Positions 13,831-61,879 of a stretch of DNA of 64,000 nt are shown one piece after another. Every line of letters starts with the position of its first letter. Positions within the stretch are counted from its first letter, which is position 1. Below the pieces are notes generated by a model that ran no database searches, was not told the origin of the DNA, and saw only the letters and a list, made by a program, of their open reading frames with translations. This DNA is from Eledone cirrhosa (lineage: Eukaryota): NCBI GenBank assembly GCA_964016885.1, contig OZ024742.1, positions 63,860,001 through 63,924,000 on the forward strand. The letters are read 5' to 3'. The translations under genes were made by a program, and so were the position numbers.

Positions 13831-14411
13831 ATAGTGATTAAGGATTTCCTTTCACAGCAACATAGTCCTGGGTGACATGGATTGTCACGTTCTGAGGCTA
13901 TTTCGGTCAGGTGATCGGGTCTTGCTAATATGTTTCCGATTGGTTTCTACGGACGGATGTCGTTCGTAATGTCAACTAAGTTACAGCGTGTATTAGAATC
14001 ATTTTATCGTAGTACCAGCACTGTCACTCTACAGAGTTTAGTGTTACTTTTTTCGTGAAACCAACACTACCACCCTACAAGGTGGACTGAGTGGTTTTTG
14101 TTGTGCTTATGTCCTGTAATTTAGCGGTTTAACAAAAAAGAAATCGATAAAATAAGTGCTCGATATGATCGACTAAATGGCCGTGTTTTTATTACTGAAT
14201 CCAGTAAAAGAGTAAAAGAGTAAACAGAGAGAGGGATATATATATATATATATATATATATATATATATATATATATGTAGATAAATCTACCAAAATATA
14301 CGGTAGTGTCCAATCCGTATGAAGAACTCAATGTAATCCAAATATCATGAAAAGAGAAGATGTATTCAAAATGTTTTCGATGAAAAACATAGGAAAACAG
14401 AGTCAAGATAA

Positions 14412-14790
14412 ATTAATAAAAATAATGAATAAAAGCAAAAAAACAGTTCCTTATATTAAAAAATTCATCATTTTACGATCGTTTCTAGGATATATATGTG
14501 TGCGTTGGTATATATATCATATAGATCTATGTAAAAATTTTACAAACTATCAGAGGGAATATACATACCTACACATATATATGCTGTCTTCAGAAATAAT
14601 TATTATTTCTGAAGACAGCATATATATGTGTAGGTATGTATATTCCCTCTGATAGTTTGTAAAATTTTTACATAGATCTATATGATATATATACCAACGC
14701 ACACATATATATCCTAGAAACGATCGTAAAATGATGAATTTTTTAATATAAGGAACTGTTTCTTTGTTTTTATTCATCATTTTTATTAAT
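14412..14790. repeat. Fold-back palindrome A (189-bp arms, 1-nt centre at 14601), Penelope-like terminal-repeat derivative, with a left-side tail 14278-14411; flanked by (TA)n
   Basis: Arms are reverse complements with a few distal mismatches; mirror ORFs 14347+ and 14550- are near-identical; hammerhead motif in each arm. Confidence 0.93.
14602..14735 (+). ncRNA. Type I hammerhead ribozyme motif with ~100-nt extended stem II (mirror copy on - strand, 14467-14600)
   Basis: Stem I ATTATTT/AAATGAT; CTGAAGA at 14609; stem II ATATATATGTGT/ACACATATATAT; GAAAC-GATC-GTA with palindromic loop III; predicted cleavage after 14728. Confidence 0.7.
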
Positions 14791-14819
14791 ATATATATAT
14801 ATATATATATATATATATA

Positions 14820-15216
14820 TATATTAATAAGAGGAATTCCAACTTTGTCTGATTTACTCGTTTTATTTACAATCCTTTAAAATATATAATGGTATTATAA
14901 TGAAATAGTATGATAGAATATTAAATTCTAAGTGTTAATTGAACAAGTACTTTCATGCTTTCACAATCTTCAGGTTCATAGTATGTGGTGACAGTCAAGT
15001 TTGCAAGTTTCAACTGTGACAGTTGAAAATTGAAAACTTGACTGTCACCACATACTATGAACCTGAAGATTGCGAAAGCATGAAAGTACTTGTTCAATTA
15101 ACACTTAGAATTTAATATTCTATCATACTATTTCATTATAATACCATTATATATTTTAAAGGATTGTAAATAAAACGAGTAAATCAGACAAAGTTGGAAT
15201 TCCTCTTATTAATATA
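14820..15216. repeat. Fold-back palindrome B (~198-bp arms, centre 15018), abutting (TA)n, with a short right-side tail
   Basis: Arms are reverse complements with about 3 mismatches. Confidence 0.93.
15058..15096 (+). ncRNA. Minimal type I hammerhead ribozyme motif (mirror on - strand, 14940-14978)
   Basis: TGAAC-CTGAAGA-T TGC GAAA GCA T-GAAA-GTAC-TT-GTTCA: 5-bp stem I, GNRA-capped stem II, palindromic AAGTACTT stem III. Confidence 0.8.
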
Positions 15217-15394
15217 ATCTTCTATACACAATCATACACACCCGTGTATATTTACCTATCTCTCTCTCTCTCTCTCTCTCTCTCTCTCTCTCTCTCTATA
15301 TATATATATATATATATATATATATATATATATATATATATATATATATATATATATATGTAAGAAAAACCATAGACCCTCCATCTCAACTCTA

Positions 15395-15430
15395 CTTTTG
15401 AAAAGCAGAAGAACTGCGAAACCGGTAAAG
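15395..15430 (+). ncRNA. Hammerhead-like motif with U3:A8 core, inside a ~135-bp repeat (15360-15495) that recurs at 25305-25436
   Basis: CTT-TTGAAAA-GCAG aagaa CTGC-GAAAC-CG-GTA-AAG. Confidence 0.6.
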
Positions 15431-57954: not shown

Positions 57955-58385
57955 AATAATGGTTTCTGATTTAGGCACAAGGCCTACAATTTTTTTGGGG
58001 GGAGGGGGTCGACTAAATCGACTCCAGTGCGTTACTGGTACTTTATTTTATCGATCTCGTAAGGATGAAAGGCAAAGCTAACCTCGGTGGGATTCGAACT
58101 CAGAATGTAAAAGGACGTAACTCAATGTCCTATGCTCTGCCGATACTCCCAATCAACAACAATAATTGTTTCTACTTTAGGCACAAGGCCAGCAATTTGA
58201 AGAGGAGAGAGAAAGTCGATTAAATCGACCCCAGTGCATTACTCGTGCATTATTTTATCGACCCGGTAAGGCTGAAAGGCAAAGCTGACCATGGCGGGAT
58301 TTGAACTCAGAACGTAAAGGGTCGTAACTCTATGTCGCAGAGCATGGTGTCCGATGCTCTACCCATTCTGCCAATCCACCACCCT
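57955..58385 (-). mobile_element. Two tandem SINE copies
   Basis: Two reverse-complement family cores joined head-to-tail. Confidence 0.8.
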
Positions 58386-59134
58386 CCAATCCACAACAAT
58401 AATAACAACATAAAAAGGCAACTAAGTCACACAGGTGTTTTCCCACTCGCTACAAAATTTCGATAATAAAGTAAACAGAAGCCATCACGAAATACATAAG
58501 CAGAAGACAAGACCTTATGTCATGGCTATAAAATATGGTTGGTTGACAGATAAGTTGCTATTAATATGCTTCTTATGTATATTTTGTTCCATCTCCCTTC
58601 CTTTTTACATCGTATTATTTACAATTGTTATATATTATGATGTTTTCATTGGTCCAGTTTTCGATCGTCATCAGATCAGGTGTCATAATTTGTGTGTGTC
58701 TGTGTCTGTGTACATATATATATAGATATATATATGTATGTGTGGGTGTGTGTGTGTGTGTGTGTGTATACGTGGGGTGGGGTGTACACACACACAAACA
58801 TTTAGTGCAAGTCAAGCGGCAATATAGTAGTTTTTACCTGTCGCCGAGTTTTTGACAGAGAGCCAGTTTCTCCAGGATAGAACGAAAGTCTATTGCATAT
58901 AACTTTCCCACGACGAAAAGGTTCAATACAATATAGAATGCAGTGTCTCACTGATGTCCACGTAAATGCCACACTACTACCGAACTAATTACTTTTTCTT
59001 AGCTAATTATTTACACCGTGTGTATAGTCTGATCTCTTAAGATCTACCGACAGACTGGATATGAACTCACGACCTTTTATATCGATCCTGCAATACCCTA
59101 CTGACCTAAAAAAGGTTCACCAGTGCCTCTATAA

Positions 59135-59355
59135 ATAATTGTTTCTAACATTAGCCCAATGCTAGCAATTTGGAGGAAGAGGAAAGTTCATTATATTGAC
59201 CACAGTATTTTACTGGTACTTTATTTTATCGCCCCCAGAAGGATGAAAGGCAAAGTTGACTTCGGTGGGATTTGAGCTCATAACATAGAGTGTCGTAACT
59301 AAATACCACAAATCATTTTATTCGACGCTTCACCGACTCTGCCATTCCACCGAAG
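59135..59355 (-). mobile_element. SINE copy
   Basis: Reverse complement of the family head, core and tail. Confidence 0.8.
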
Positions 59356-60220
59356 TAATGCCCCAATAAATAATGTTATCCATTTATCATTCATATTTGA
59401 ACACCATGTCCACCGAAACAATTCCCTTGGAAATGTGAACATGAGGATTTCTGGACAGACCCCATAACTGATTTCAAACTTATAGATTGCTCGGTGACAC
59501 TCCTCAGGGATGTCTTCGCGGATTTGTCCACATTTTCTGGCAATTTGTTAGTGATTGATCACCCAGAACTCTTACCATATTGAACCAACAATTGCCTGGC
59601 TTTGGGCGACATGTCACCCCGCAAAAACTGTTTAATCTTCGACTTTTGTCGAAGTCTGACGAAACATTTTGAGGATTTACTGGGATTCATATAAATTACA
59701 GAGCAGGAAAAATGATCAAATTCTTAATCTATCGTAAATCCCGCAGAGCGGCTCTAACACAACGTTTCAAAACTTCATATATTCAGTATATAGCAAGGAA
59801 ACTGTTTTAGACTTACTTAGTAGACTGGCTACCAATGATCATCAGCTATGCATACATTTCCATCGAAATACACCCAGTTTCTGTATATTTTAGTACCTGT
59901 CTAATTTATGTTTGTGTTTATATTTCTATATATTATCGTATATCAATCTAAATTCCTATTATAGTCTACTCCCGATAATTTGATGCTCAGTAGAGCTGCT
60001 TACATTGGTATATGAGTTGCGCTATGTTTAGCATTCCCGCCAAACCCGCTGCTACAATATTGTGACAGCTACTATGGCAACACCCTTGGAGTCCAGTATG
60101 TAGATAGCTGATATTTTGGGTGACTATTAGGACGGCCTACTGATGAAACAATTTGTCAGCATTTTCTATTCCGTTTACCAATATATATATATATATATAT
60201 ATATATATATATATATATAC

Positions 60221-61664
60221 AGAAATTACATGAATCAAAGTTCTGTTCAAACCATTTATTCGTTTACAATTGTTTCTTCCAAACCTAGGTTTGAAGTCTT
60301 CGGAGCAATTTTTCAATGATTGTTTACATACATGACCTCCTTTCCAACACAAGAGACATACAGAAACATATGTATATATTGATGCACAGTGGGTTGACAT
60401 CCATTATAATATTTTAGCATGGCAATTTACATTCAAAGATTAAAGTCATATTAAAAGAAAACAAAATTAAAGTTAAAATACAACATTGGCAGTTTACGAA
60501 GATAATGCAAGAGGATAGTTAGAAGTAGTTAGTGTATGCAATAGTTACACGTGGGGCATGCACGTGTGTCTTATTTATATAAGATTATAGTGCGGCAGGG
60601 TGTTATATGTAATACAAGCACTTTAAGCGGGAAATCAAGAGTACTATGGAGGTTGTATTGGTAAAGTATTTTTTTATATGTATGATATAGAAGCTTGTGT
60701 GCAGAGAAATATTAAACATATTAAAAATGAGGAGCAAAACAATGTTATGGTTTTCGTATACACCACCATTTTCACAATCCAGGAAACGTAATATATAGAT
60801 TATATGTCCTACACATAATCTACGATGATTCAATATTGGATGCTTGATGAATTAGGTTAGAATATTACAGCTTGTTGTTCTTTAATCCAATTTTATAGAG
60901 CAGGTTGTTTTTGTTGCGAGAATTAACATCGTATTATTTTCCGGAAAATAATACGATGTTAATTCTCGCAACAAAAACAACCTGCTCTATAAAATTGGAT
61001 TAAAGAACAACAAGCTGTAATATTCTAACCTAATTCATCAAGCATCCAATATTGAATCATCGTAGATTATGTGTAGGACATATAATCTATATATTACGTT
61101 TCCTGGATTGTGAAAATGGTGGTGTATACGAAAACCATAACATTGTTTTGCTCCTCATTTTTAATATGTTTAATATTTCTCTGCACACAAGCTTCTATAT
61201 CATACATATAAAAAAATACTTTACCAATACAACCTCCATAGTACTCTTGATTTCCCGCTTAAAGTGCTTGTATTACATATAACACCCTGCCGCACTATAA
61301 TCTTATATAAATAAGACACACGTGCATGCCCCACGTGTAACTATTGCATACACTAACTACTTCTAACTATCCTCTTGCATTATCTTCGTAAACTGCCAAT
61401 GTTGTATTTTAACTTTAATTTTGTTTTCTTTTAATATGACTTTAATCTTTGAATGTAAATTGCCATGCTAAAATATTATAATGGATGTCAACCCACTGTG
61501 CATCAATATATACATATGTTTCTGTATGTCTCTTGTGTTGGAAAGGAGGTCATGTATGTAAACAATCATTGAAAAATTGCTCCGAAGACTTCAAACCTAG
61601 GTTTGGAAGAAACAATTGTAAGCGAATAAATGGTTTAAACAGAACTTTGATTCATGTAATTTCT
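60221..61664. repeat. 1,444-bp zero-spacer palindrome F (722-bp arms, centre TTCC|GGAA at 60942/60943) with right-side tail 61665-61826, between (TA)n tracts
   Basis: Mirror ORF coordinates sum to 121885; only 2 mismatches seen, both distal; homologous to 28008-28713. Confidence 0.95.
61577..61625 (+). ncRNA. Hammerhead-like motif (CCGAAGA core; mirror 60260-60308, - strand)
   Basis: TTGCT-CCGAAGA-c TTCAAAC ctag GTTTGGA a-GAAAC-AATT-GTA-AGCGA; palindromic loop III. Confidence 0.7.
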
Positions 61665-61879
61665 ATATAACTGCTCTGTAGAACAACTGATGTTATTACA
61701 TTGAGCTATTTATCTTACTGGTAATAAGGTAGTCATAAATTACTGTCTTTCACTATTTAGGGTTTAAAATATATATAACTATAAAAGGTTTTAGTATATA
61801 CATAACCATAAATAGTATCCTTAATACTATATATATATATATATATATATATATATATATATATATATATATATATATA

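Follow-up and report, generated by a model that had tools for sequence, protein, structure and literature searches.

Palindromic insertions of Penelope-like elements in the genome of Eledone cirrhosa and their probable origin by twin priming

A 64,000-nt stretch of the Eledone cirrhosa genome (assembly GCA_964016885.1, contig OZ024742.1, positions 63,860,001 to 63,924,000 of the forward strand; hereafter the window) contains eight inverted-repeat units of six sequence families. Each family corresponds to the end, that is, the pseudo-long terminal repeat (pLTR) plus tail, of a Penelope-like element (PLE) encoding a reverse transcriptase (RT) and a GIY-YIG endonuclease. The units are best read as 5'-truncated PLE insertions, in which the two arms would be separate reverse transcripts joined head to head, and we consider it probable (roughly 65%) that they form by twin priming from a pair of RNA start sites, in many cases with run-off at the capped 5' end. 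The two start sites are designated site A (the end of the tail) and site B (the start of the tail). Copies of the families were searched for throughout the 3.0-Gb assembly.

Arm geometry of tail-anchored copies

An initial annotation of the window had proposed that the units share a mirror-arm plan with an unduplicated tail. Inverted arms and a tail restricted to a single side were indeed found, unit 3 being tailless, but the arms are often unequal, measuring 55 and 61 nt in unit 4 and ~106 and 162 nt in unit 5. Arm geometry was analyzed across the genome in the top 30 tail matches of each of four families (ranked by tail identity, the window copy included), which were mapped onto natural long copies. 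A same-family inverted arm was present in 94 of the 120 tail-anchored copies. In three families, 63 of the 70 copies had the outer end of the tailless arm no more than 2 nt away from a single position; the unit 8 family was excluded from this count because its outer ends ran into a TA run of the reference, a mapping artefact. Among the 94 arm pairs, the tailless arm was longer than the tail arm by more than 10 nt in 35 and shorter in 16, with a difference within 10 nt in the remaining 43; the unit 4 reference reached 61 nt only, and longer unit 4 arms are therefore unmeasured in these figures. The most extreme pairs of tailless and tail arms measured 4,009 vs 18, 1,193 vs 27 and 514 vs 2 nt, and 13 tail arms were 30 nt or shorter, some of them with partner arms of 0.4-4 kb. 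Where the tailless arm is the longer of the two, it cannot have arisen by simple copying of its tailed partner.

In the unit 2 and unit 6 families, which were sampled by exact motifs, close arm-end pairs were head-to-head in 23/27 and 25/27 cases, and exactly one tail was present in 18 of 19 position-ordered pairs. The two inner arm ends vary independently of each other, and an arm of another family was joined to the tail in 2/30 unit 4 tails. Both arms carried the same subfamily variant in 60 of the 69 classifiable hairpins (14.3 ± 3.1 expected by chance; 34/103 unclassifiable), suggesting that they usually derive from one RNA or one source. One insertion of the unit 5 family, in L159 (G000:C1:311793600-311801900), has arms that continue into different sequences upstream, suggesting two source RNAs.

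A common fold with an added G:C pair and a TATA-like word

Arm stops pile up at fixed distances from the boundary, namely 61 nt for unit 4, ~198 nt for units 1 and 2, and ~170-180 nt for unit 5. In the unit 1 family, 235 loci are folded at the common stop and none at an arbitrary mid-arm site. A hand count in the first 100 of 341 unit 4 family matches gave 56 loci with both arms at the stop, at which the junction carried an added G:C (33), an A:T (3), two bases (9) or nothing (11), a single added base thus being G:C in 33/36. Of the 23 loci in the unit 2 family, 19 had one G:C and 4 had two bases, so that the single base was G:C throughout (19/19). The read-through template at the added-base position is T in both families, and the G:C pair is therefore non-templated. 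This base may accompany either arm: it was assigned to the tail arm at 19 and to the tailless arm at 11 of 30 one-tailed unit 4 family loci (33 fetched), and to the tail arm at 3 and the tailless arm at 6 of nine unit 2 family loci (15 of the 23 fetched).

A TATA-like word occurs at -31 or -30 relative to the fold in 9/9 (unit 5), 5/7 (unit 2) and 12/24 (unit 4) distinct contexts, -31 being the usual position of a TATA box. An extra G is a mark of capped full-length insertions of long interspersed element 1 (LINE-1, L1; PMC11702581), and the Penelope promoter lies within the pLTR (PMC2377424). The common fold is accordingly interpreted as the capped start of transcription, at which reverse transcription of either arm can run off.

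Proposed insertion mechanism and alternative explanations

In the proposed mechanism, the PLE endonuclease would cut both strands of a (TA)n target and each cut strand would prime one arm, one 3' end being extended from site A and its counterpart from site B, in most cases along a single RNA. Where the two sites lie in the 5' copy of a tandem transcript, both enzymes would run off the capped 5' end after 60-200 nt and one of them would copy the cap as C, yielding small, near-symmetric hairpins with a fixed fold. Use of the 3' copy would instead yield long unequal arms, joined via microhomology or natural palindromes. A hammerhead would be included only if its whole core is downstream of the start site, as in units 1, 2 and 5, and hairpins folded at the start site, having lost the TATA box, would likely be dead ends. 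Twin priming at sites A and B with head-to-head joining is suggested by the genome data together with in vitro results for a Poseidon protein, a predicted dimer that cuts both target strands and extends them from two internal sites, one at each border of the tail, with no hammerhead cleavage needed (PMC11167929). The broader proposition, that PLEs of at least two clades perform obligate two-ended priming by a dimer at two fixed RNA sites with run-off at the cap, such that the fold of a mini-hairpin marks the transcription start to the base, is in our judgement evenly balanced between being right and wrong.

Several observations weigh against twin priming with run-off at the cap. The strict one-tail asymmetry of the genome copies contrasts with the in vitro system, in which the two strands did not differ in start-site use (PMC11167929). 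No TATA-like word was found at -31 in the unit 1 family (0/4 contexts), and a start site for units 6 and 8 was looked for but none was established. The insert CG, which corresponds to two caps, is rare (0/56 unit 4 family loci and 1/50 in another set), and the G:C inserts of units 1 and 5 are uninformative, the template base being C. Junction patterns were placed where arm stops had already been seen, and a G or C added by terminal transferase would mimic a cap copy. Tailless arms shorter than ~20 nt would escape detection, and a central deletion of a once symmetric palindrome could also give unequal arms. The variants shared by both arms in 60/69 hairpins are compatible with one RNA used twice and equally with DNA copying or later conversion between arms. 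Finally, in L162 (G000:C2:219053200-219061500), a palindrome of the unit 5 family extends ~200 nt into the host flank and includes a neighbouring unit 4 copy; this inverted flank is attributed to DNA-templated copying past site B and, together with unit 3, points to fold-back in some events.

Fold-back is the most serious alternative, and the initial annotation had favored cDNA fold-back self-priming as the origin of the units. A cDNA primed at the tail would fold back and copy itself up to the tail boundary, and unequal arms would result from later deletion across the palindrome centre. Self-priming has been put forward in print for PLE palindromes (Arkhipova et al. 2013; PMC3846280), and R2 insertions provide a documented case of snap-back synthesis, which frequently follows completion of a full-length cDNA (PMC11371274). 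Such copying would account for the variants common to both arms, for the non-element DNA mirrored in unit 3 and L162, and for exact symmetric folds at natural palindromes off the common stop (unit 8 at 734/734; L096 and L098 at 73/73). However, it fits poorly with a tailless arm that is longer in 35/94 copies and often far longer, tail arms of ≤30 nt standing beside arms of 0.4-4 kb, and with an extra terminal base found on either arm; it also leaves the fixed stop at site B and the arms from other families unexplained. In addition, a spacer of 0-1 nt is too short for a priming loop. As the main route, fold-back is thus unlikely, although it may account for a minority of the copies, unit 3 being the best candidate for genuine DNA fold-back.

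Whether the units are independently mobile had been left open, and the variation among copies now answers against it. Under this alternative, the hairpins would be non-autonomous units resembling miniature inverted-repeat transposable elements (MITEs) or retrozymes, amplified whole from master hairpins, an improbable origin despite high copy numbers, fixed outer ends, an identical fold position at the 235 unit 1 family loci, and a 194-nt unit 4 query that matches 40/40 scored loci over nearly its full length. Junction letters vary from copy to copy, the fold base occurs in both orientations relative to the tail, each of eight arm variant classes has its own hairpins, sizes are continuous up to full coding elements, and the units do not form tandem arrays. 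Because junctions and arm variants differ among copies, the units look like dead-end insertions rather than mobile hairpins. It is more improbable by far that the palindromes are long-read fold-back or assembly chimeras, as might be suspected from the 99.6% identity of the unit 8 arms without a spacer and from the lack of any public contig or Illumina read, among those examined, bridging a whole unit. The arms differ at 2 to 11 positions per unit in the five window units counted, the flanks differ between sides, and ends specific to each family recur at over 100 loci. Public contigs, as well as Illumina reads from another sample, also contain head-to-head joints of these families with unequal arms.

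Units of the window and their coding parents

The eight inverted repeats and the six or so families first proposed were all recovered, with unit ends at the same positions or a few bases off, and units 3, 4 and 7 form a single family (Table 1). The proposed PLE origin was likewise borne out, since genome searches traced a coding PLE parent for every family.

Table 1. Inverted-repeat units of the window, with their arms, tails and hammerheads.
Feature	Position	Strand	Description
Unit 1 inverted repeat	14408-14794		98% identity
Unit 1 tail	14278-14407	-	Hydra-type family; parent copy L155
Unit 1 tail-bearing arm	14408-14600	-	Hammerhead 14600-14467
Unit 1 fold	14601		Common stop point of the unit 1 family (235 loci)
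Unit 1 tailless arm	14602-14794	+	Hammerhead 14600-14737; predicted cut after 14728
Unit 2 inverted repeat	14820-15216		98% identity
Unit 2 tailless arm	14820-15017	-	Neptune-type family; parent ORF in L351; hammerhead 14978-14940
Unit 2 fold base	15018	+	Single G; read-through template T; putative copy of the RNA cap
Unit 2 tail-bearing arm	15019-15216	+	Hammerhead 15058-15096
Unit 2 tail	15217-15258	+	
Unit 3	15756-15870		Unit 4 family; symmetric tailless hairpin with (TA)n at its centre and, around this, 9 mirrored non-family bases
Unit 4	37662-37855	+	Inverted repeat 37662-37777, 93% identity; tailless arm 37662-37716 (55 nt); tail-bearing arm 37717-37777 (61 nt), beginning at the putative transcription start (37717); tail 37778-37855; Hydra-type parent L226
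Unit 5	50800-51163	-	Inverted repeat 50885-51163; tail 50800-50884; tail-bearing arm 50885-51042 (hammerhead 51003-50937); tailless arm 51053-51163; Hydra-type coding copy L159
Unit 6 inverted repeat	51579-54149		96% identity
Unit 6 tailless inverted arm	51579-51877	-	~300 nt; hammerhead 51775-51733
Unit 6 body	51878-54205	+	RT and C-terminal GIY-YIG endonuclease (to ~53749), 5'-truncated, frameshifted
Unit 6 3' pLTR	to 54149	+	Hammerhead 53953-53995
Unit 6 tail	54150-54205	+	
Unit 7	54223-54365	-	Unit 4 family; tail 54223-54300; short unequal arms 54301-54365 meeting at a natural 6-nt palindrome
Unit 8	60216-61827	+	Inverted repeat 60216-61669, 99.6% identity, no spacer; arms 60216-60942 and 60943-61669 (727 nt each); fold at a natural 8-nt palindrome; tail to 61827; Hydra-type parent open reading frame (ORF) in L164 and L152
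Unit 8 hammerhead	61577-61625	+	Core CCGAAGA

A GIY-YIG domain follows the RT in the body of unit 6 and in the parents L164/L152, L155, L159, L226 and L351. In unit 6, the GIY-YIG domain was recognized by Pfam at E=2.6e-4, just under the curated cut-off, and the RT, without Pfam recognition, was assigned by eye from its motifs. Judged by such motifs, four families appear to be Hydra-type (units 1, 3/4/7, 5 and 8) and two Neptune/Nematis-type (units 2 and 6). The Hydra clade is characterized by RWK, DKT, a CxCx5C linker, the lack of CCHH, and late CxxC and CxH motifs (PMC8557442), and the complete set from this list was not seen in each family: L164 (unit 8 family) encodes RWR, DKT and CxCx5C, L155 (unit 1 family) DKT, CxCx5C, CxxC and CxH, and L159 (unit 5 family) CxCx5C and CxxC, while the Hydra-type motifs of L226 and L227 (unit 4 family) come from a by-eye reading of the DNA. 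The unit 2 parent is a 789-aa Neptune-type ORF in L351. A CCHH endonuclease motif and a zinc-finger-like linker are encoded by both unit 6 and L351, one linker cysteine being substituted in the latter.

Where source copies are arranged in tandem, the tail of one unit reads on into the leader of the following unit and the beginning of its ORF, as has been described for Adineta elements (PMC3846280). Partial tandems, with a pLTR and tail directly 5' of the ORF, were found in the unit 8 family, in the unit 2 family (L354, L356) and in the unit 4 family (L227). Inverted arms, one-sided tails and hammerheads have all been published for PLEs, as has (TA)n targeting for the Hydra clade, and the units are therefore new families of a known element kind with a known architecture rather than a new class. 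For the unit 4 family, an origin as a stand-alone RNA resembling a short interspersed element (SINE) was considered and rejected, because a shared upstream region and a coding parent were found.

Two further PLE-related segments lie in the window. Positions 26469-28718 hold a diverged relative of the unit 8 family, comprising the 3' part of the ORF and the 3' region, whose tailless end is at (TA)n. On the minus strand, 17582-18580 is a piece of another Neptune-type PLE ORF with 34-57% identity to the unit 2 parent.

Hammerhead motifs and RNA folding

Hammerheads are enriched over chance: nine type I descriptor matches were obtained in 12100-64000, against a mean of 0.1 and a maximum of 1 in 40 dinucleotide shuffles. 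The initial annotation had placed an outward-reading hammerhead in both arms of five units. Eight of the nine matches do lie in units 1, 2, 5, 6 and 8, all of them outward, but the full fold is present in both arms of units 1, 2 and 6 only; judged by eye, helix I is missing from the second arm of unit 5 (a duplication) and contains a broken pair in the second arm of unit 8. The cores vary, with CCGAAGA in unit 8 and a UU cleavage triplet in units 2 and 6. The ninth match is a well-formed type I hammerhead at 56731-56657 on the minus strand, outside the units, of which no close copy was found among the fetched loci. In an Rfam scan, no hammerhead family was among the best 150 of 266 matches, these being miRNA-type matches to microsatellites and hairpins that were all below gathering scores.

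Unit 4 has no complete hammerhead. Its parents (L197 and relatives) contain a hammerhead-like three-way junction with a long helix II, the core of which reads as a U3/A8 swap with a variable N7. The inferred start lies inside helix II, and for this reason the arms of units 3, 4 and 7 lack the hammerhead core. Ribozyme-cut RNA was also considered as a possible template: in the unit 1 family, 5/10 nearby folds are exactly at the predicted ribozyme cut and carry no added base; the corresponding numbers are 0 for unit 8 and 2/34 for unit 2. A small RNA hairpin motif follows site B in four Hydra-type tails and site A in two (partly by eye).

It had been suggested that a read-through hairpin transcript could cleave itself. 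In a transcript across a unit, from either strand, the antisense arm is made before the sense hammerhead, and the predicted unit 2 hairpin is far more stable (-308 kcal/mol) than one arm plus tail (-31). Self-cleavage is therefore unlikely, and the hammerheads are predicted to be passengers locked within the hairpin. Animal PLE hammerheads are also described as weak in vitro (PMC4209133). With regard to the suggested A-to-I editing of such hairpins, the five window units counted have too few mismatches between their arms to reveal a skew.

Flanking (TA)n, abundance and other repeats

The proposed (TA)n flanks are well supported by the window, in which (TA)4 lies within 30 nt of 14/16 unit ends, compared with 8.6% of random positions; the remaining 2/16 ends adjoin (TC)n or degenerate TA. 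Across the tail-anchored copies, (TA)4 was present within 30 nt of the tail end in 107/120. Both flanks are (TA)n, which would mask any target site duplication. The families are abundant, with exact arm motifs of three of them occurring 3,070, 4,116 and 23,128 times in the genome and reversed controls not at all, and copy sizes form a continuum from ~100 nt up to full coding elements.

Other repeats were recorded in the window. Positions 25112-25168 form a 57-bp hairpin, the arms of which recur beside (TA)n at several loci (e.g. L021, L033 and L129), and which is possibly another stub family. At 15570-15690, a ~120-nt non-palindromic insert is flanked by two (TA)n runs; a 10-nt word of this insert also occurs among the non-family bases in unit 3, and the insert shares a short motif with the leader of the unit 4 source. 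A satellite array of a 37-bp unit (~327 copies, 90% identity) occupies 1-12096. In addition, the pairs 29289-30023 / 40778-41572 and 48097-49575 / 57592-59632 are distant inverted copies of dispersed repeats that are 84-93% identical, and these lie outside the present finding.

Comparison with known elements

Published insertions of endonuclease-containing (EN+) PLEs (PMC8557442, PMC3846280, PMC2377424, PMC8969392) resemble the units in the inverted pLTR, the one-sided tail running into the next tandem unit, partial tandems, the pLTR hammerhead and the promoter inside the pLTR. However, the tails are 42-160 nt here versus 30-40 in the published elements, short hairpins are very common here, and the available portions of those papers contain no description of fixed folds at which a G:C is added and a TATA lies at -31. 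The parents of units 1, 3/4/7, 5 and 8 share RW, DKT, CxCx5C, the lack of CCHH, hammerheads and (TA)n insertion with the Hydra clade (PMC8557442), whereas the families themselves are new, have long 3' untranslated regions and include one with an atypical U3/A8-type core that is cut off by the arms. How tandem and inverted PLE ends and the tail are formed is a named open problem (PMC8557442).

The in vitro system of Anolis Poseidon (PMC11167929) is similar in its two tail-bounding RT start sites, in the cutting and extension of both strands, and in its AT-rich targets. The available text of that study contains no proposal that two cDNAs are joined, and start-site use showed no strand bias there, whereas genome copies here nearly always have one tail; nothing on inversion was found in its three text supplements. 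LINE-1 twin priming (PMC11702581) is comparable in that the second target end primes internally on the RNA and produces a 5' inversion, and in the extra G at the capped end. L1 inversions, however, show overlaps of 1-10 nt and a second site set by microhomology, whereas the second site is fixed here and the same RNA stretch would be copied twice. Among the papers listed by the literature searches, which covered few subscription papers, none was found to apply twin priming or cap run-off to PLEs.

Animal non-LTR retrozymes (bioRxiv 10.64898/2026.07.22.740005) are likewise non-coding, carry type I hammerheads and are akin to PLE pLTRs. They are described as head-to-tail tandem arrays, in contrast to the units reported here, which are head-to-head and continuous with coding elements, and no head-to-tail array with a hammerhead per unit was found at the eight units. 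A MITE or foldback DNA transposon is not matched either, given the tail outside the repeat, the variable junctions and the RT-coding parents.

Collectively, these copies provide base-level evidence on PLE insertion and lead to predictions for the Poseidon in vitro system (PMC11167929), namely that each strand should use a fixed start site of its own, that synthesis should stop at the cap, and that a C should be added on either strand. These families also indicate that hairpins of MITE-like appearance are retro-insertions in genomes of this kind, and the abundant arm motifs, as judged from sequence, are a large potential source of double-stranded RNA. If the proposed two-ended priming is true, one mechanism would explain the inverted pLTR, the one-sided tail and many thousands of mini-hairpins, and such a genome would contain templates for perfect double-stranded RNA in large numbers.

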